Below, one piece after another: positions 4,286-53,377 of a stretch of DNA of 64,000 nucleotides. Under the pieces are notes generated by a model. It did no database searches and was not told the origin of the DNA. It saw only the letters and a program-made list of their open reading frames with translations. Location: NCBI GenBank assembly GCA_016212395.1, contig JACRGF010000062.1, forward strand, positions 5,315-69,314, written 5' to 3'. Origin of the DNA: Candidatus Micrarchaeota archaeon. Lineage in GTDB: Archaea > Micrarchaeota > Micrarchaeia > Burarchaeales > JACRGF01. The position numbers and the translations under genes are program-made. Positions within the stretch are counted from its first letter, which is position 1, and every line of letters starts with the position of its first letter.

Positions 4286-4380
4286 CAGGCGGTTTTGAAT
4301 TGTCTTGAATGGTTTTGACTTGGTGGTTTCATTTCTGTGGTTTTGCAGTAGTTTTGAGTGGTTTTCTGTTGCTTATTTAG

Positions 4381-6278: not shown

Positions 6279-6354
6279 AAGAGTAAGATGAGAAAAAACA
6301 AACACGAAACTCGAAACTGCAAAACTCAAAACCACATAGACAAAACAATCTTTT

Positions 6355-6410
6355 GCCAGGATGGTAGATTAGTTTCGAACTGCGGTTCGAAAATTCTATA
6401 CCACCCAAGA
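6355..6410 (+). repeat. Duplicate of the first 14 nt of tRNA-Cys followed by an 8-bp hairpin
   Basis: gccaggatggtaga at 6355-6368 is identical to 6440-6453. Followed by tttcgaac-tgcg-gttcgaaa. No matching 3' acceptor strand of its own. Confidence 0.6.
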
Positions 6411-6439
6411 CCCAAAACTCAAGACTGAAAACGTTTTAC

Positions 6440-6605
6440 GCCAGGATGGTAGAGCGGCTATGCATCCGGCTGCAGTCCGCCCCTTTTCTTTCTTTTCGGC
6501 GTTCCGAAAAGAAAGAAAAGTGGCAGGGTGCCCCAAAAGAAAGAAAAAAGGAAAGAAAGGGCACGCAGACACCGGACTAGGGGGGTTCGACTCCCTCTCC
6601 TGGCT
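6440..6605 (+). tRNA. tRNA-Cys (GCA) with a ~95-nt intron after position 37
   Basis: Acceptor GCCAGGA/TCCTGGC. Anticodon stem TCCGG/CCGGA. Loop CTGCAG with GCA at 6472-6474. T-arm GGGGG-TTCGACT-CCCTC. Discriminator T (the Cys identity base). Intron about 6476-6570. No encoded CCA. Confidence 0.8.
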
Positions 6606-6831
6606 TAACGAGTTTTGAGTTTAGAGCTTTCAGTTTTGAAGCTGCTTCACTCACGGCTTAAACGAGTTTTGAGTGGCTCTGGCTGGTTTTGAATAGTTTT
6701 GAGTTGTTTTTTTCACAGTTTTATTCTCTTTAGCAGCTGTGCGGCATTGAATTGCAGGTTCAAAACCCCTCAAATGCCTTGTTCTGCACTAAACTTAAAG
6801 AACAATATCCAAAAAAAAGTGCAGAGACTCC

Positions 6832-10771: not shown

Positions 10772-10867
10772 AAAACCGTCTCGAGTCCACAGTCTTGAGT
10801 CTTGAGAAAAAAATCAAAACGATTCAAAACCACTGCAAAACCCTGAAACTTCAAAACTTCCGAACGT

Positions 10868-12568: not shown

Positions 12569-12632
12569 AAAAACACCTCCAAACAAAACTTCTAAACTTC
12601 AAAACTGAAAACTCCGAACTCAAAACCCCGCT

Positions 12633-14522: not shown

Positions 14523-14599
14523 TGAAACAGAGCTTGGAAGGTTCAGTTATACCACCGTTTAAATCAAAACAACTGCAAGACGATTCAAAACAATTCAAG

Positions 14600-17949: not shown

Positions 17950-18450
17950 TTATTCAAACTGCTTGAACAGGCTTTGCGCTGTTTTTTTCGTCTCAAGAGT
18001 TATTTCAACGAAAACGATTCCCTCGCCAGGCTGGCCGTACAACAGCACTGCGCCGCGCTGGGCGTGAAGCATTACAATGAGAGACGCCAAGTCTTCCTCG
18101 CCTTCCACGAACACGCTTCCCTTCTTCGCACGCAAAACGCTTTTCACCGCCTTTTCAAGCTCGCCAGTTATAACTCCGGCAGGGCTTTGCACGCGAATCG
18201 CATGCGGGCAGTAGCGTTCAAGCGTGCTTTTCACTTCAGCGCTTACAGGAACGCGCGCGTTCTTCAAATCATAAATTATAATGTCAGGATTAACGTTGTT
18301 CTTCAAAAGCGCGAACGAACACGTATCGCCCACTGAAACCACGAGCGCGCCAGTCATGCCCGCAAGCTTGGACAAAACCTGCTGTTCAGTGAGAATTTGC
18401 CCGAACGGCCTTGCAAACGTCTCACGAAGTTTCTCAGGAAGCCGCTTCAT
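17950..18450 (-). CDS. GTP-dependent dephospho-CoA kinase (DUF359 family)
   Basis: VVSVGDTCSFALLKNNVNPDIIIYDLKNAR, NPAG-like SPAGVITGEL, VEGEEDLASL, LLYGQPGEGIVFV. Confidence 0.8.
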   Translation of the reverse strand: MKRLPEKLRETFARPFGQILTEQQVLSKLAGMTGALVVSVGDTCSFALLKNNVNPDIIIYDLKNARVPVSAEVKSTLERYCPHAIRVQSPAGVITGELEKAVKSVLRAKKGSVFVEGEEDLASLIVMLHAQRGAVLLYGQPGEGIVFVEITLETKKTAQSLFKQFE

Positions 18451-18471
18451 AACAATCACACAGCAAAACAA

Positions 18472-18736
18472 ACCACCAATTCAAAACTCCAAAACTCCTA
18501 AACTACAAAACCAACGAAACAAAACTACCCCAACAAAACTCCAAAACCAACGAAACAAAACCATTCAAAACTTCTAAACTCCAAAACCACCAATTCAAAA
18601 CTCCAAACTACGAAACCTTAAACCCCAAAACTGCAAAACTTCAAAACCAACGAACCAAAACCACTCGAAACTCCTAAACCACAAAACTCCAAAACTACTA
18701 AACTGCAGAACTTCTAAACTCCGAAACGCCTAAACT
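18472..18736 (-). repeat. 265-nt array of roughly 33 degenerate 8-nt units (plus strand NNNAAAC; transcript sense GTTTNNN)
   Basis: ttcaaaac tccaaaac tcctaaac tacaaaac caacgaaac ... Contains internal higher-order duplicates (ccaccaattcaaaactcc twice, aaaaccaacgaaacaaaac twice). Fills the whole spacer between the helicase and DPCK genes. Confidence 0.85.
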
Positions 18737-20305
18737 TCAAACGAAATCCGCCATGGTGCTCTGGCCTTTCTTGACTGCTTTTTCTTTCTTCAATTTTGAA
18801 GGCAAAGCTTCGTTTTGTGGAGTTTCTCCGCTCATTGTTTTAAGTATTCGCTTCATTTTCGTTTCCTTCGCCCTGCTCGACCAAAAGTATGATTCGTCGC
18901 GCGTTCCTTTTGTAATCAAAATTATCGCCTCGCCAGCCTTCGCGCGCCCAGCCCTGCCTCTTCGCTGGATAGAACGAATTTCGCTTGGAATAGGCTCGTA
19001 GAAAACAACGCAATCCACTTGCGGAATGTCAAGCCCTTCCTCGCCAATCGAGCTCGCGACAAGCACGTTGAACTCGCCCCGCCTGAACGCTTCGATAGTC
19101 TCCTGCTGTTCCTTCTGCGAAACGCCGTCGCGCTTTCCAACAAACTGAAGCGCCTTCACTCCCTCAATTGAATTCAACCGCTCGACAATGCGTTTTATCT
19201 GGTCCCGGTACTGCACGAACACGATGAACGTCTTGCCTTGGCGCGCGCTGATGAGCTCAACGAGTTTCACTATCTTCGGGTGCTCTACAGACAATTTTTC
19301 AGCGTCAGCCAAAAGCGAAATAGTGCGCTCGTCGCTCAACAGCTTCAATACCGCCTTGCTTTTCTCCTCGCGTTCGTTCATGCGCTTGAAAAAATCAAGG
19401 AACGCGCCCACGCTCTGCGTCTCGAGCAGCTCGTGCGCGTGAACAAGGTTGAACAACAGCGCGACGTTCATCATGCCGGGGTATTTCGTTGGCCGCTTGT
19501 CGCGCAAAATGCGCTTGCGCATTTCAATCAACGCCTTCTTCCTCAACGTCTTCACGTTCCCATAAACATACCCGAGATTGCGCAACACGCCCACGCGCTC
19601 TTCAACCATCTCGCCCAAACGCTGCTTAAGCAAAGCATACTCAACAGGAAGCTCGACGAAAACCCACTCGACGTCCAACTGCTTCACGTACTTCGCCACG
19701 TCCTCGTCAGCCTCACTGCGCGCTTCAACATTCGAAATGCCGAGCGCCTTCATCGTCTCCTCAATCTTCTTCCTGCTCCCGCCAGGAGAAGCAGTCAAAG
19801 CCAAAACAACAGCCTTGCTCGCCTTGCACTCGTTGGCAACAAAAGTGTAAGCATAATCGCCAACTGCACGATGGCTCTCGTCAAAAACAACTAATCCGAA
19901 GTCGCTCACGCGCGCAATTCCAGAACGCAAATCATTCTGCACAGTCTGAGGCGTGGCGGAAATAACGCGCGCATTCTTCCAAACAGCCTCGCGGTTTTCA
20001 GGCTTCGTCTCCCCAGTAAGCAAAACAACCTCGCTCTCGGAAAGAAGCATCATTTCAAGCACGCGCACAACATGCTGTTCAGCCAACGGCTTTGTCGGAG
20101 CCATGAACAACACGCGCTTGCCCTCGCGCAAAACAGCATCCATCACAAGCAACGCGACAACAGTTTTCCCCAAGCCAGTAGGCAGCACTACAAGCGAATT
20201 GCCGTTGCGCAAAACATTCCCGGCAATGCTCGACTGGTAATCACGAGGCTGCACAGCACCCGCACGCAGAAACGAATCCGACGCCATAAGCAGAAATTTC
20301 TTCAA
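18737..20305 (-). CDS. Hef/FANCM-type SF2 helicase (helicase domains only, no nuclease domain)
   Basis: PRDYQ...LVVLPTGLGKT (motif I). DESH. TASPG. C-terminal lobe SSIGEEGLDIPQVDCVVFYEP...QRRGRAGR. Confidence 0.85.
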   Translation of the reverse strand: MKKFLLMASDSFLRAGAVQPRDYQSSIAGNVLRNGNSLVVLPTGLGKTVVALLVMDAVLREGKRVLFMAPTKPLAEQHVVRVLEMMLLSESEVVLLTGETKPENREAVWKNARVISATPQTVQNDLRSGIARVSDFGLVVFDESHRAVGDYAYTFVANECKASKAVVLALTASPGGSRKKIEETMKALGISNVEARSEADEDVAKYVKQLDVEWVFVELPVEYALLKQRLGEMVEERVGVLRNLGYVYGNVKTLRKKALIEMRKRILRDKRPTKYPGMMNVALLFNLVHAHELLETQSVGAFLDFFKRMNEREEKSKAVLKLLSDERTISLLADAEKLSVEHPKIVKLVELISARQGKTFIVFVQYRDQIKRIVERLNSIEGVKALQFVGKRDGVSQKEQQETIEAFRRGEFNVLVASSIGEEGLDIPQVDCVVFYEPIPSEIRSIQRRGRAGRAKAGEAIILITKGTRDESYFWSSRAKETKMKRILKTMSGETPQNEALPSKLKKEKAVKKGQSTMADFV

Positions 20306-20455
20306 GACAAAATATAAACATTAATAAGTGAACCCGTAATTAAGCAGTAAACACAGTGCGACCGCTTTTCTTACGAGCCATTGAAAACGTTTTTAAACCT
20401 GAATTAATACTAAGTATGAGCAGGTATGAGGAGGTTGGAAGTCTGGGGTTTGGGA

Positions 20456-20493
20456 GTTTCGGAGTTTAGAAGTTCTGCAGTTTAGTAGTTTTG
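20456..20493. repeat. 38-nt exact inverted copy of 18690-18727
   Basis: gtttcggagtttagaagttctgcagtttagtagttttg is the exact reverse complement of ccaaaactactaaactgcagaacttctaaactccgaaac (minus one terminal base). The pair brackets the helicase gene. Confidence 0.9.
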
Positions 20494-20525
20494 TTTGTTT
20501 AGTTTTGCAGTTTGGGAGTGGTGGC

Positions 20526-21323
20526 ATGGGGAGAGAGTTGAAGGATAAAATAGCATTTTCAATTGACCCGAAGCTGTTGAAGCGTGTTGACGAGATGGTT
20601 GACAACGTGACAGTGAGGAGCAGGTCGCACGCGATAGACATTCTTTTGAGAAAAGCGTTCGGCGAAGACAAGGTGAGAAGCGCGTTCGTGTTTGCCGGAG
20701 GCGAGAAAAGCGCGAAGTACGGAATTCCCAAGTGCATGGTTGAAGTGAATGACAAGCCTTTGCTCCAGCACGCGATAGAATGGCTTGAAAAAAACGGGGT
20801 AGAGGAAGTGACGATAGCAACAGGAAAATTCAAGGACCAGATTGAAAGCTACTTCAAAAACGGGGAGGAATTCGGAGTGAAAATTGATTACGTGGCTGAA
20901 TTCGAGCCGCTTGGAACCGCAGGCGCGCTCAACAACGCGGGCGTGAGGTTCAAGACAACGTTCGTGGCAATGAACGGCGACGTGGCGTGCGACTTCAGCC
21001 TCGAGAAAATAGTGGAGTTTCACAAGCGAAGCAAGGCAGTCGCAACAATGGCTTTGACTGAAGTTGAAAGCGCCTCGAAATACGGCGCAGTAGAACTGGA
21101 AGGCGAAAAAATAACCGGCTTCGTGGAAAAGCCCAAGGAAGGAAAAGAGCCGAGCAAGCTCGTCAACGCAGGAGTTTACGTCTGCGAACCTTCAATAGTA
21201 GGGTTTACTCCAGAGAAAGGAATGCTTGAGAAAGACGTGTTTCCACTTCTCGCGAAAAAAAAGCTTTTGAACGGATTCGTGTTCAGCGGGCAGTGGCTTG
21301 AAGCCTCAAGCGAAAAAGAGTAA
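20526..21323 (+). CDS. Ribbon-helix-helix (CopG-like) domain fused to a sugar-phosphate nucleotidyltransferase-fold domain
   Basis: N-terminal IAFSIDPKLLKRVDEMV...RSRSHAIDILLRKAF. Then FVFAGGEKSAKYGIPKCMVEVNDKPLL...EPLGTAGAL...VEKPKE. The G-loop lacks the usual GxGTRL. Confidence 0.65.
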   Translation: MGRELKDKIAFSIDPKLLKRVDEMVDNVTVRSRSHAIDILLRKAFGEDKVRSAFVFAGGEKSAKYGIPKCMVEVNDKPLLQHAIEWLEKNGVEEVTIATGKFKDQIESYFKNGEEFGVKIDYVAEFEPLGTAGALNNAGVRFKTTFVAMNGDVACDFSLEKIVEFHKRSKAVATMALTEVESASKYGAVELEGEKITGFVEKPKEGKEPSKLVNAGVYVCEPSIVGFTPEKGMLEKDVFPLLAKKKLLNGFVFSGQWLEASSEKE

Positions 21324-30875: not shown

Positions 30876-31010
30876 GGGCCCGTAGCTCAGCTTGGCTAGA
30901 GCGGCTGACTCTTAACAGTATTCAAGTTTTCAGTTCTCAGTTTTGAAGGCTTGACAAGTTTTGCTTTGAGTGAAATCAGTAGGTCGCGCGTTCAAATCGC
31001 GCCGGGCCCG
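30876..31010 (+). tRNA. tRNA-Lys (CUU) with a ~60-nt intron after position 37
   Basis: GGGCCCG-TA-GCTC-AGCTTGGCTA-GAGC-G-GCTGA-CTCTTA. Intron about 30915-30974. Then A-TCAGT-AGGTC-GCGCG-TTCAAAT-CGCGC-CGGGCCC-G. Anticodon CTT at 30911-30913. Confidence 0.85.
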
Positions 31011-31237
31011 TCTCTTTTTTTGGTTTTCAGTTTTGAGGTTTAGAAGTTTTGACTTGCTTTTTCTCTTTTTTTCTCTTTAAGGGAAAAACCCGCTGAAAAT
31101 GCGTGAAACGCAAATTACTATGAGAGTATGTATAATGAATCTGAGAAAAATTTAAATATCCTGACCAGTAAAATGCTTCTCATAGGCCAGTTTTGAAGAG
31201 GAAAAAAAATCGCTGCAAAAAAAGCGGGGGTTGTCTG

Positions 31238-33334: not shown

Positions 33335-33466
33335 GCTATAGCAAACCACGAAAGTAATGCGACAAAAGTCCAATAACTCCGTCTCGTGGTTTGCTTTGAG
33401 TCGACTGCTCAACAACGCGAGGCGTTGTTGAAGTTGCAAACCGCATTACTTATGCGGTTTACAGTA
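33335..33466. repeat. Copy 1 of a ~130-nt three-hairpin repeat element; overlaps the aCPSF1 start codon
   Basis: gcaaaccacga...tcgtggtttgc (11 bp), caacaacgc-gag-gcgttgttg (9 bp), aaaccgcat-tactt-atgcggttt. Near-identical to 46168-46363 apart from a 64-nt insert in the latter. Confidence 0.85.
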
Positions 33467-36400
33467 AAAGAGGTTACAGAGGTTTTAAAGTTGGCTAACA
33501 ACGACATTAATGAAATACAAAAAAAACTCGAAGAAGTCCTGCCCCCAGCATGCGAACTAAGCAAAGTAGAGTTTGAAGGCCCGGACGTTGCAATCTACCT
33601 GAAAAACATCACTGCATTCTACTCAGACGAAAACCTCATAAGAAAAATAGCGAGCAGCCTCAGAAAACGCGTGCTCGTGCGCGCAGACGGAAGCACGCTC
33701 GTGCCGCAGGAAAAGGCGAGAAAGGAAGTGGAAGCGCTAATTCCAGTGGAAGCAGGAGTGCAAAACATCCAGTTCATGGAAGACTTCTGCGAAGTCGCCA
33801 TTGAATCCCTCAAGCCAGGGCTCGTGATTGGAAAGCAGGGAAGCACGCTCAAAAACATTATTCTCAAAACAGGCTGGAGCCCGAAAATACTGAGGACTCC
33901 GACGATGCCATCTGAAACAATCAAAGGAATAAGAGGAAGCCTCTACAAAGAGAGCGAAAACAGGAAAAAATTCCTCAACGCGCTGGGAAAAAAGATTTCA
34001 ACAGCCTCAAGCAAAAGCGATTGGGTGAAAGTAACAGCACTCGGAGGATTCCGCGAAGTCGGGAGAAGCTGCCTCCTCGTGCAAACTCCGAACGACAAAA
34101 TCCTCATAGACTGCGGAGTAAACCCTGAAACGAACGAGGGAACGCGCGCATTCCCGTACTTGACTGCAATGAACATTCCGCTCGACGAACTCGACGCAGT
34201 AATAGTAACCCACGCGCACTTGGACCATTGCCTTGAACCGGACACGCTCGTTGCAATGGCTGACGGCACTTCGAAACCAATTGACGAAGTTGTTGAAGGA
34301 GACGTGCTCGCGAGCGTGGACTTGAAAACCGGGCGCATGGCAGAAGGCAAATGCACTGGCAAGATAAGAACGCGCGCGCACGAGTCGATTGTGGAAATAA
34401 GAACGGAGAACGAAACTCTCCGCGCTTCGCCGAACCACCGCTTTTTCGTAGTTGAAGGCATGCAATTCAAGGAAATCGAGGCGGACAGCCTTAAGCAAGG
34501 AGACGTGGTTGCTGTTCCATGCATCGAACACGCGAGCTTGCCGGCAGCACGACTTCTTGAAAAGCCGAATTACGAAGAGATTGTGGAAATTCCATTTGAA
34601 TTAAAAAAAGCCATTGGCAGTTTCAGATCAGAAAGAGGGTTATCCTCACAGCAAATGTCGACGTTGATAAACAGGTCTGGAAATTACGTACAACAGCTGG
34701 AAACAATGCATGACCACGCAAACACAACAACGCTGAAGCAACTTGCGGAAATAACGGGCGTTGACAAAACAATGGTGAAAGAAACGATTTTCCCTGTAGA
34801 ACTCAACCCAGAGCTCGCCCAAATCGCAGGGTACGTGACAGGAGACGGCCACGCTTCAAGCGATTATTCAGTGCGAGCCACTGACAAAAACGTTGAATGC
34901 CTGGAAGAATACAAAAACGCAGTAATGCACGTGTTCAGCCACAAGGCAGTTATACGCCATCACCCAGACCGCACTAAAAACGCCCACGTGCTTGAAGTGA
35001 ATAATGCAGGCATAAAGCGGTTCCTGGAACTGAACTTTGAAGGCATTTTCGCGCCAAGCAACGAAAAGAGAGTGCCGAGAAAAATATTATCAGCAGAAAA
35101 AGCAGTTATAGCAGCCTACTTGAGAGGGCTTGCAGACGCAGAGGGAAGCGTTACCACCCACATCAAAATCGCGTCGTCAAGCAACAAACTCTTAGAACAA
35201 GCGCAAACGCTTTTCAGAATGCTTGGAATAACCGCAACAATTGCAGACAACGTCGTAAAAATAGAAGCAAAGGCAAGCATGAAACGCTATGCTGAACTCG
35301 TCGGCTTTTCGCATCCTTTGAAGGCAGCCAAGCTGGCTGAAATGACGCGCAGCCAAACAGCAGGAGAAGAAAGAGAAATCACGCCGATAAACGCCGAAGA
35401 CGCGCGCAGCATGCTCACTGAATGCGGATTCATAAGCAGAGCGCGCAGGACAGGCGGAAGCATGAAATCACTGCCTCCTGCAATCCACGAACTCTGCTAT
35501 TACGGAAAACACGCGACAAGAAAAACCGCAATGCAACTCGCACAAACGCTTGAATCCAAGGCGAAAACAGCCGAAAGCGCCCGCAAGCAAGCAAGCCTTA
35601 AAGAAAAAAGGCGTGCGGCAGGGCTTACAATAGCAGAAGTGTGCGAGAGTGCAAGATGCACGCGAGTTCAAGCATGGTACAGGGAAAAAGAAAACCTGAA
35701 AGACAAACTTTGGGAAAAACTGAACGCCTTTCTCGACTCTGCACTCGAAAAAAAAGCAGCCAAATGCAAGGAAACAGCTGAAAAAATCAAGCGCCTGCTC
35801 GCCATGCCAATCAAGTGGCACGCCATAAAAAAAATCGAAAAAAAACAAAACGACTGTGACTATCTCGTCGACATTGAAGTCGAGCCACACCATAATTTCA
35901 TCGCAAACGGGCTCATGGTTCACAACAGCGGCTTCATTCCATACTTGTACGCCTACGGTTACGACGGGCCAGTCTACTGCACTGCGCCAACGCGCGACTT
36001 GATGGCATTGCTTCAATTCGATTATATTGAAGTAGTAAGCAAGAGCGGAGGCAAAGCGCCTTACAACGAAAAACACGTGCGCAAAATGCTGAACAGGTGC
36101 GTAGTCCGCGAGTACGAGGAAGTGACGGACATCACTCCGGAAACAAAACTCACGCTTCACAACGCAGGCCACATTCTCGGAAGCTCGATGGTGCACCTGC
36201 ACATAAGCGAAGGCCTCCACAACCTCGTAATAAGCGGAGACATAAAATACGGGTACACGCAACTATTCGAGCCTGCGAACACGAAATTCCCGAGAATAGA
36301 AACTTTATTCATGGAAAGCACTTACGGAGGCAGGGAAGACATAATGCCACAGCGCCATGAGACAGACTCGCGCCTCGCAGCAGCAATAATGCAAACGCTT

Positions 36401-37087
36401 GCAAACAAAGGCAAAGTGCTCATCCCAGTATTCTCAGTAGGAAGAAGCCAGGAAATAATGCTCGTGCTCGAAGAATTCGCCTCAAAACACCCTGACTTTA
36501 ATTATCCAATTTACTCAGACGGAATGATTCTAGAAGCAAGCGCAATCCACACTGCTTACCCTGAATACTTGAAGCACAACGTCCAACGCAGAGTGCTCAG
36601 CAACAACTCGCCATTCGAAAGCAAAATCTTCGAAGCAGTAAAGAAAAACAGGAAAGACATTGTAGAAGGCGACCCGTGCGTCATCATCGCACCGTCAGGC
36701 ATGATGAGCGGAGGCCCAAGCATAGAATACTTCAAAATGATGGCGGAAAACCCAAACAACCTCCTCGTATTCGTAGGGTACCAATCAGTGCTCTCAATGG
36801 GAAGAAAACTCCAGCGCGGATTAAAAGAAGTCCCAATCATGGGAGAGGACGGAAGAATAAACACGCTCAAAATCAACATGAAAATAGAAACAGTAGACGG
36901 CTTTTCCGGGCACAGCGACAGAGCGCAACTCATCAGCTTCATGAAACACATACGCCCCACGCCGGAAAGAATATTCACAGGCCACGGAGAAGAAACAAAA
37001 TGCGAAGAACTCGCACGCGTAATAAACAGGATAACACACCTCGAAACACGCGCGCCAATGAACCTTGACTCCATAAGGCTGAAATAA
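33452..37087 (+). CDS. aCPSF1 (KH-domain beta-CASP metallo-beta-lactamase RNase, FttA-type) interrupted by an intein
   Basis: N-terminal KH region ([25 protein letters not shown]). HAHLDH split from [26 protein letters not shown] by the insert. C-terminal beta-CASP (MESTYGG, FSGHSD, VFTGHGE). Confidence 0.9.
   Translation: [1211 protein letters not shown]
34229..35926 (+). mobile_element. 566-aa intein with a LAGLIDADG homing-endonuclease domain
   Basis: Starts with Cys ([19 protein letters not shown]). Block B ASPNH. LAGLIDADG motifs [10 protein letters not shown] and [11 protein letters not shown]. Ends [20 protein letters not shown]. In frame: 1698 nt. Confidence 0.85.
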
Positions 37088-37308: not shown

Positions 37309-37974
37309 TTAAAACCCTAATTCTTCATCAACCAAAATTACCGCCATTCTTCCCTTCACGCACTCAAACTCAGTAATCAAAACCTGCCCGCACATGCGCT
37401 TGAACTCAGGAGCACAACACTTTTCCTCGTTGCACTTTCCACTGAAGCACGGAGTATTATCCCAATTCAAGCGCTTGCAATTCAAGGGAGTAGCGACAGA
37501 ACGCAAACGCTTGAACGCATCATCCAACGAACGAACGAGCTTGTTCCTGCCCACAACAACAATAGTTTTCTTCTTCGCAAAAGCAACTCCAGCAATCCTG
37601 TTACCGAAAGCAGACGCGACAAGCAACCGGCCGTCCTCAACAACAGCATTCGCTGAAGCCAGAAAATAATCAGCATTCGCACCCTCCCTGCTCAAACGAG
37701 CGCGTTCAACAGAATTCAAGGCATTATCCCTATCAAAAACAACAAGCTTTTTTTCTCCCGCGCTCTCCCTCAACCCATCAAGCACGCCGAGCTCAACGAG
37801 AGTCTGAGAACCGCTCCACCCAACACTCGAGTTGCCTTCAATCAAGGAAAAAATTTTCGCGTTCGCTTCAGCCTTGTTCGCACAGAAAAAAAACTCTATT
37901 TGCCGCTTTTCAAAAGCACAAGAAAGCTTTTCAACATCCAAACACGCCACAAAACCACCCAAACAAAACTTCAA
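37309..37974 (-). CDS. LUD-domain (LutB/LutC, DUF162-like) protein
   Basis: GANADYFLASANAVVEDGRLLVASAFGNRIAGVAFAKKKTIVVVGRNKLVRSLDDA. Cys-rich tail CFSGKCNEEKCCAPEFKRMC. Confidence 0.5.
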   Translation of the reverse strand: MKFCLGGFVACLDVEKLSCAFEKRQIEFFFCANKAEANAKIFSLIEGNSSVGWSGSQTLVELGVLDGLRESAGEKKLVVFDRDNALNSVERARLSREGANADYFLASANAVVEDGRLLVASAFGNRIAGVAFAKKKTIVVVGRNKLVRSLDDAFKRLRSVATPLNCKRLNWDNTPCFSGKCNEEKCCAPEFKRMCGQVLITEFECVKGRMAVILVDEELGF

Positions 37975-38002
37975 AACTCCAAGACTGCGAAACCACCCAA
38001 AA

Positions 38003-39280: not shown

Positions 39281-39287
39281 CATTTAC

Positions 39288-39522
39288 GCCTCCATAGTAT
39301 AGTTTGGATAGAATGCGGGCCTCCGGTGACTTTTTTTCTTTCTTTTCGAGCAACAAAAACGTTTCGACGTTTTTGTGCTCCACAAAACGCTTTGCGTTTT
39401 GTCGGACGAACCGAAAATAAAGAAAAAACCTCAACTAAAAAAGAAAGAAAAAGTAAATGAAAAGAAAAAAAAAAGAAAGTTGGGGAAAGCCTGAGACAGG
39501 GGTTCAAATCCCCTTGGAGGCG
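39288..39522 (+). tRNA. tRNA-Arg (CCG) with a ~161-nt intron after position 37
   Basis: Acceptor GCCTCCA/TGGAGGC. Anticodon stem CGGGC/GCCTG. Loop CTCCGG with CCG at 39323-39325. T-arm AGGGG-TTCAAAT-CCCCT. Discriminator G. The D-stem is weak (A12/A23 mismatch). Intron about 39327-39487. Confidence 0.7.
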
Positions 39523-39530
39523 TTTCAAAC

Positions 39531-53233: not shown

Positions 53234-53377
53234 ATAATGCACGAAGAAAAAATCAAACAAAACAGAAAATATACGAAAGAAAAAAAACTGCAAACTGAAC
53301 ACGCAAAACTGAAAACTCAAAACCATCCAAAACCTCTAAACTACAAAACATCTAAACCCAAGACACTAGACTGAAGA

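Follow-up and report, generated by a model that had tools for sequence, protein, structure and literature searches.

The closest described kind of element to the arrays reported here is the short tandemly repeated repetitive (STRR) sequence of heterocystous cyanobacteria, reportedly described by Mazel et al. in 1990. Like STRR sequences, the arrays consist of very short head-to-tail units at many non-coding loci, are restricted to one lineage, and have neither coding capacity nor a hairpin. Their dispersal is also of the STRR type: 213 intergenic arrays of at least four units were found, 52 of the 67 contigs of the genome contain arrays, and among 40 close relatives and 300 other genomes of the phylum the octamer family is absent, apart from one perfect (GTTTTGGG)4. 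However, the unit is not a heptanucleotide as in the STRR sequences; it has 8 nt instead of 7, with far greater degeneracy. Its host is an archaeon, the orientation of the arrays is strongly linked to transcription, arrays also occur in tRNA introns, and the sequences themselves are unrelated.

U-tract terminators that depend on FttA (aCPSF1) are a second system to be considered. In Methanococcus maripaludis, the minimal aCPSF1/FttA site consists of two U4 tracts within 18 nt of RNA (Li et al. 2021, PMC8716108). In vitro, pairs of U3 are not bound by aCPSF1, and more U4 tracts lead to more efficient termination (PMC8716108). Partial terminators inside operons (ioTTS) are found in 38% of the operons of this species, where they tune expression (NAR 2023, PMC10450193), and they depend on polyU tracts plus aCPSF1 (PMC10450193). 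The arrays resemble such sites in having sense U4 tracts, two or more within 18 nt, in intergenic positions and also inside operons. They differ in comprising 10-30 tracts in an 8-nt register rather than 1-3, in that half of the tracts are only U3, and in that many arrays are placed within 5' leaders, directly before start codons or in a tRNA intron. The STRR sequences are the nearest kind, with a possible mechanistic link to attenuation by FttA at U-tracts.

Slippage-born minisatellites of bacteria, for example (GTTTAGGA)n and (GTTTTGAA)n, share some octamer words with the arrays and are likewise head-to-tail and intergenic. The unit length of 5-10 nt, and an orthologous spacer that differs in length and unit order between relatives, also agree with this class. 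The bacterial minisatellites, however, are near-perfect copies of a single word at few loci per genome, whereas each array here mixes about 10 unit variants, more than 200 loci occur in 1.4 Mb, and orientation is linked to transcription. An IUPAC scan of 185k species genomes returned only near-perfect single-word octamer microsatellites, which were bacterial; these were considered as homologues and judged to be unrelated simple repeats. Runs of (GTTTAGGA)n, (GTTTAGAA)n, (GTTTTGAA)n and (GTTTTGGA)n are present in many Bacteroidota, Verrucomicrobiota, cyanobacteria and gammaproteobacteria (L103-L182), often at contig ends; in L106, L110, L167 and L173 an inverted copy follows the run, and the two would form a long hairpin.

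REP/BIME and MITE-like repeats are also small, gene-less, intergenic and lineage-specific, and they too occur in tRNA introns. The arrays differ from them in having no inverted repeats or hairpins (fold z -1.4) and no fixed length or defined ends, and in their tandem 8-nt substructure. CRISPR arrays are defined by repeats of 24-48 nt with unique spacers of similar length, whereas the 8-nt units here abut without spacers. A search of a literature library found no description of such octamer arrays in archaea.

The main array and its window

The window, by which we mean the whole 64,000-nt stretch of DNA that was analysed, spans positions 5315-69314 of contig C57. It comes from a 1.37-Mb genome (67 contigs, 47% GC) whose best protein matches place it in the Micrarchaeota, within the DPANN archaea. 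Genes were called with our own codon-usage ORF caller, a rough tool that gave 1280 genes and 85% coding sequence and made some wrong orientation calls. The genome encodes DUF359, HMG-CoA reductase, intron-bearing tRNAs, FttA and one LSm protein. The FttA gene (window positions 33386-37087) matches KH_TffA, Lactamase_B, Beta-Casp and RMMBL. An intein that comprises a LAGLIDADG homing endonuclease and an HTH domain splits this gene, which thereby encodes 1211-1233 aa; the gene of the related genome termed sister C is intein-free and encodes 624 aa (L231:11975-13849). The 16S rRNA match covers 4.5 kb (G000:C29:52225-56716) versus a model of 1.48 kb, indicating several long introns in the gene. 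Two repeated blocks, such as GTTTAGCTGCGTCGGAGCTCCGACGTGTGGTT, were found in the outermost 130 nt or so at many contig ends; one has 26 exact copies and the other 22. Examples are C57:31-132 and the stretch that begins at C57:69317, just beyond the window. The blocks resemble both termini of a multi-copy insertion element at which the assembly collapsed.

The main array fills the whole spacer between a helicase gene and a DUF359 gene (Table 1), beginning at the stop codon of the former and leaving about 10 nt ahead of the ATG of the latter. On the minus strand, which is the sense strand for both flanking genes, it reads GTTT[T/A/C]G[G/A]A and is composed of GTTTTGGA, GTTTAGGA, GTTTAGAA, GTTTCGGA, GTTTTGCA and similar words, placed head to tail. 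TRF reported periods of 8, 16 and 24, and the base autocorrelation peaked at lags 8, 16 and 24 (0.58, 0.51 and 0.47, respectively). The description in the first-pass annotation of this spacer as an array of about 33 units is therefore borne out, as is the 8-nt period that it proposed. The array contains 17 U4 and 15 U3 tracts and no T-run longer than 4, and no TATA-like box was found between it and the DUF359 start. The sense RNA has a predicted fold of -38.9 kcal/mol (z = -1.39), no better than that of shuffled sequences, and the antisense RNA is essentially unfolded (-2.7 kcal/mol). The inverted arrays that flank the helicase gene have 38 identical nt in common (main array versus 20457-20494).

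Table 1. Arrays and associated genes in the window (coordinates are window positions)
Feature	Position	Strand	Remarks
Sense array between two plus-strand genes	4290..4375	+	Ends 5 nt before next start
Array in antisense orientation to the flanking genes, upstream of tRNA-Cys	6300..6435	-	Single exception in the window
Sense array directly 3' of tRNA-Cys	6606..6712	+	
Sense array between two minus-strand genes	10772..10867	-	
Short sense array	12587..12632	-	Orthologous spacer of relative B without array
Short sense array in the spacer of a 541-aa gene and a glycosyltransferase gene	14560..14599	-	
DUF359 gene (archaeal dephospho-CoA kinase family)	17950..18459	-	Downstream gene in the pair
Main array	18460..18742	-	About 33 octamer units; placed at 18472-18736 in the first-pass annotation
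DEAD/DEAH-type helicase gene	18737..20254	-	Upstream gene in the conserved pair; inverted arrays on both sides
Array in the 5' leader of an NTP-transferase gene, divergent spacer	20440..20517	+	Between TTTTTAAA box at 20381 and ATG at 20526
tRNA-Lys(CUU) intron	30915..30974	+	GTTTTC/GTTTTG words, sense; Rfam and ARAGORN
T7 tract followed by sense array, directly 3' of tRNA-Lys	31011..31060	+	
Sense array between minus-strand genes	37950..38002	-	
Sense array in the 3' trailer of a 1797-aa gene, convergent spacer	53290..53377	-	
Short sense array beginning at a stop codon	58840..58871	-	Begins ATAAGCGTTTCGGAG...

The 12 further loci of the window all carry words of the main array, in the orientation that had been assigned to them, and the array upstream of tRNA-Cys is the sole antisense case. 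The tRNA-Lys intron was identified by both Rfam and ARAGORN; an array fills it, with three GTTTT words in sense orientation. Ahead of the NTP-transferase gene, a TTTTTAAA box precedes the array and the ATG follows it, which places the array in the 5' leader.

Several side observations concern the tRNA genes. The tRNA-Cys(GCA) gene (about 6440-6605) has a 95-nt intron and oppositely oriented arrays on either side, and a second copy of its initial 14 nt (gccaggatggtaga) is found 85 nt upstream. Six or more arrays, spread over different contigs, contain a longer variant of the unit, GTTTTGTCTATG(N)GG (window 6335-6350; C18, C23, C54, C55 and C60). ARAGORN called a tRNA-Trp(CCA) with a 161-nt intron at window positions 39287-39523 and a similar one at C13:23290-23513, and Rfam reported neither at its gathering score; the two calls could be spurious or could represent tRNA genes with heavy interruption.

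Abundance and orientation in the genome

Arrays were located by a chain scan for GTTT at spacings of 6-10 nt, with at least four units, under strict and relaxed rules. The scan returned 174 strict and 237 relaxed arrays in the genome, compared with about 2 in third-order Markov controls. A four-unit IUPAC pattern matched the genome 92 times, and the reversed pattern did not match at all. Given 174 arrays versus 2 and 92 matches versus 0, chance is excluded. The arrays hold 6.5% of the spacer DNA, at a density about 66-fold above that in genes; 22 arrays lie inside called genes in 1.16 Mb of coding sequence versus the 213 in intergenic DNA, in agreement with the expected intergenic enrichment. 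The first-pass annotation overstated their distribution in assigning them to most intergenic regions: among 806 spacers of at least 50 nt, 149 (18%) contain an array of at least four units, and 26% one of at least three units. Where arrays overlap called genes, 21 of 24 are antisense to them; arrays give rise to spurious antisense ORFs.

The unit consensus is G-T-T-T-(T/A/C)-G-(G/A/n)-(A/G), also written GTTT-H-G-N-R. Wrap-around alignment of arrays of at least eight units gave position frequencies of G.85, T.88, T.94, T.90, T.71/A.20, G.70, G.52 and A.57. Units are most often 8 nt long within a range of 5-10 nt, with 7- and 10-nt variants, and larger gaps also occur. The T-runs within arrays number 575 of 3 nt, 707 of 4 nt and only 119 of at least 5 nt. 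Two roles in translation were considered and rejected. Trains of Shine-Dalgarno sequences would need words that are rare here, with GGAG in only about one of ten units, GGAGG three times and GGTGA never; as for translational insulators with stops in all frames, only 41 of the 213 arrays have stops in all three.

Between co-directional genes, 99 arrays are sense and 35 antisense, on the basis of the rough gene calls. The counts are 53 sense versus 9 antisense for arrays of at least six units and 22 versus 4 for at least eight (binomial p ~1e-8), and units are more numerous in sense arrays than in antisense ones (6.9 vs 5.2, p = 6e-4). Convergent spacers contain a further 33 arrays, and divergent ones 41. 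The genome-wide map thus upholds the U-rich reading on the sense strand that had been proposed from the window, and the intercistronic location is supported as well. Array orientation follows the strand of the neighbouring genes and reverses over a distance of less than 2 kb (18.7 kb vs 20.4 kb). Therefore, orientation is linked to transcription and not to replication, and an effect of the replication strand is ruled out.

Neutrality of the satellite alone does not account for a sense bias of 6:1. The sense strand has a modest excess of G over C (skew 0.155 at four-fold sites and 0.123 in array-masked spacers), and start codons are typically preceded by GGTG and then a T-rich tract, e.g. GGTGGTTTTGTT-ATG, which would make seeds for slippage common on the sense strand. 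T6+ terminator tracts were also considered as seeds and rejected, because only about 5-8% of the arrays between co-directional genes touch one. More speculatively, antisense arrays would pair with transcripts of the dominant orientation, thereby selecting for uniform orientation. If the U4 trains attenuated transcription inside operons, selection should favour antisense arrays, and the opposite is seen.

Arrays in related genomes

Sister C (GCA_053535415.1) has the same gene order as the window, with identities of 76% for the helicase, 54% for DUF359 and 68% for TFE. Its helicase-DUF359 spacer is only 15 nt long, and the divergent spacer between the helicase and NTP-transferase genes measures 61 nt versus 271 nt with the array here. 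No clean arrays were found in the approximately 33 kb of sister C that was covered, only a few GTTTTC words around tRNA-Lys; its convergent gene ends carry ordinary T5-T8 tracts. The helicase and DUF359 genes are also adjacent, about 30-45 nt apart, in three more genomes of the same family or order. Spacers of 15 nt to about 45 nt in four other genomes indicate that the main array entered a conserved gene pair recently.

Relative B (Logan SRR22387921; about 12 kb compared) is closer than sister C, with identities of 74% for DUF359 and 90% for TFE. Its orthologous helicase-DUF359 spacer contains a 247-nt array in the same orientation and with a different unit order, where the spacer here is 277 nt long. 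Two nearby spacers of relative B have no arrays where this genome does; for the array that separates the 541-aa and glycosyltransferase genes, the orthologous spacers are array-free in both relatives, at 17 nt (relative B) and 47 nt (sister C). The comparison with related genomes that the first-pass annotation had proposed thus shows a lineage-restricted family, with an array in the same spacer of relative B and 15 nt in sister C. Absence from sister C and presence in relative B suggest that the family arose after the split from C, and the differences between the arrays of relative B and this genome indicate fast turnover. A metagenome scan with the helicase returned only distant matches. Arrays also break assemblies, and one Logan contig begins inside the main array.

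Some further features were noted in these comparisons. The array of relative B is interrupted mid-way (L234:225-275) by two short GC-rich hairpins, GTCGGCTGTTGCCGAC ... CGACAACGCAAGCGTTGTCG; a similar and possibly related hairpin, CAACAACGCGAGGCGTTGTTG, lies upstream of FttA (window 33400-33440). The tRNA-Lys homologue of sister C (L231:8710-9261) is on the opposite strand relative to TFE and apparently has more than one long insert.

Arrays at distant loci of this genome share exact segments. The longest has 57 nt and is common to the main array and C60:10120-10221. Identical segments of at least 24 nt are shared by 40 pairs of arrays, versus about 4 after unit shuffling, and those of at least 32 nt by 8 pairs versus 0. 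The shared segments described in the first-pass annotation are therefore real; since identities exceed the shuffled null, copying between loci is likely to have occurred in addition to growth in place.

Probable transcription through the arrays and its possible effect

Most arrays between co-directional genes leave little place for a new promoter. For 95 of the 99 sense arrays in this context, no TATA-like box separates the array from the following start codon, and for 28 the distance to that codon is below 25 nt. A properly placed TATA box was found in 7 of 98 array-bearing spacers versus 76 of 353 array-free ones, by a regular expression that misses some promoters, since in divergent spacers it recovers a proper box for only about one gene in two. 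Relative to start codons, TATA-like words are most frequent at -30 to -35 and at -45 to -55; the region from -60 to -21 is enriched in TTATAT, TTTATA and TTAAAT and depleted of array words. T6+ tracts lie beside 14 of the 33 arrays in convergent spacers versus 8 of the 99 between co-directional genes. Their presence at convergent ends suggests that ordinary oligo-T terminators are still in use and that the arrays are mostly read through. Gene arrangement and the missing recognisable promoters likewise point to RNA polymerase passing through most arrays.

With a probability of about 0.55, we read the arrays as a young, dispersed and degenerate octanucleotide minisatellite, restricted approximately to a genus, driven by slippage and copying and residing in transcribed non-coding sequence. 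The family would have colonised non-coding DNA that needs to be transcribed, namely intercistronic spacers, 5' leaders, 3' trailers, and the introns and trailers of tRNA genes. Replication slippage would change the number and order of units, multi-unit segments would now and then be copied between loci, and the arrays would persist mostly with the G/U-rich reading in the RNA. The array RNA would then serve as an unstructured spacer traversed by RNA polymerase, with T6+ tracts, rather than arrays, acting as terminators. The two-U4-within-18-nt rule is satisfied by 70 of the 99 sense arrays between co-directional genes. Since the genome also encodes FttA, leaky and length-dependent attenuation is the most plausible molecular consequence: trains of U3-U4 may cause polymerase pausing and FttA-assisted attenuation of the downstream genes. 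Such attenuation would account for orientation mattering; it would probably be tolerated or mildly useful, and not essential.

A stronger version of this idea, which we regard as doubtful, is that the arrays are purpose-built, evolvable rheostats of expression. Trains of U4 pairs, as minimal FttA/aCPSF1 sites, would be selected as length-graded attenuators; slippage would tune their strength and set the read-through to the next gene or tRNA, controlling operon polarity and leader-dependent expression as the ioTTS do in M. maripaludis. A U-tract element requires a sense bias, which is found, and the share of sense arrays with paired U4 tracts (70 of 99), the T-runs capped at 4, right at the threshold, the FttA with a KH domain and the retention of an array in the same spacer of relative B all agree with such a role, for which the ioTTS in 38% of M. 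maripaludis operons are a precedent (PMC10450193). On the other hand, arrays have been gained and lost among close relatives and are absent from the orthologous spacers of the sister genome, so that no conserved regulation is visible. The mix of U3 and U4 is the same in operon-internal, leader and 3' contexts, and a composition that depends on context was accordingly rejected. U3 units, to which aCPSF1 does not bind in vitro (PMC8716108), make up about half of the total, and at the efficiencies of M. maripaludis, 17 U4 tracts before an essential gene of CoA synthesis, or an array in a tRNA intron, would be very costly. If the rheostat existed, a regulator-poor DPANN genome would gain cis-encoded and rapidly tunable operon polarity; in a variant of it, the arrays would be coated in register by a lineage-specific G/U-binding protein.

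Binding of a specific protein at periodic sites, raised as an option in the first-pass annotation, is improbable in our view. The binder could act on RNA, with SmAP/LSm or the KH domains of FttA as chaperone or protector, or it could be a single- or double-stranded DNA-binding protein that coats spacers in an 8-nt register. Judged from the sequence, the GTTT core and G6 are kept while positions 5, 7 and 8 are free, a position-specific conservation that could reflect protein binding. The strand bias fits, the RNA would be unstructured and accessible, and LSm and FttA are both encoded. However, these two proteins are universal in archaea whereas the arrays occur in one small lineage, for which a candidate binder of its own was not identified. 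The antisense orientation of 15-25% of the arrays, the irregular spacing (7-, 8- and 10-nt units plus larger gaps) and the rapid turnover also argue against this proposal.

Slightly less probable again is the conservative interpretation of the first-pass annotation, in which the arrays are efficient stacked oligo-T terminators or processing sites, with transcripts ending or being cut in the arrays and downstream genes having their own promoters. The U-rich reading of the sense strand would suit terminators; 39 of the 132 arrays downstream of a gene begin within 10 nt of the stop codon, and some follow a T7-T9 tract, such as that at window position 31011. After most arrays, however, there is neither room for a promoter nor a TATA box, and the main array lies within a conserved, tightly spaced gene pair. 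Moreover, 41 arrays occupy divergent spacers, where no protein gene ends, one lies within a tRNA intron, the T-runs are of 3-4 nt, and T6+ tracts remain at convergent gene ends. The reservation already made there, that a plain terminator does not suffice, was justified, given arrays in 5' leaders, in a tRNA intron and abutting start codons. Least credible of all is that the units are weak TATA/BRE-like boxes forming promoters or upstream-activating arrays: they do face the downstream gene, often near its start, and TTTAGA and TTTAAG are one mismatch from TTTAWA, but the words enriched in the -60 to -21 region are classic TATA words, array words are depleted there, and arrays are found in 3' trailers and introns too.

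The arrays offer a natural test of how far the two-U4 rule for FttA in Methanococcus extends to other archaea, because they place dozens of U4 tracts in operons and leaders that need read-through. If the reading as a young minisatellite is correct, a 1.4-Mb archaeal genome of the symbiont type would be open to quick invasion by a simple repeat, which now holds 6.5% of its spacer DNA, and conserved tight gene pairs would be able to grow from 15 nt to nearly 300 nt apart. The entry of the repeats into tRNA introns would then illustrate the growth of non-coding DNA and long introns in the Micrarchaeota.
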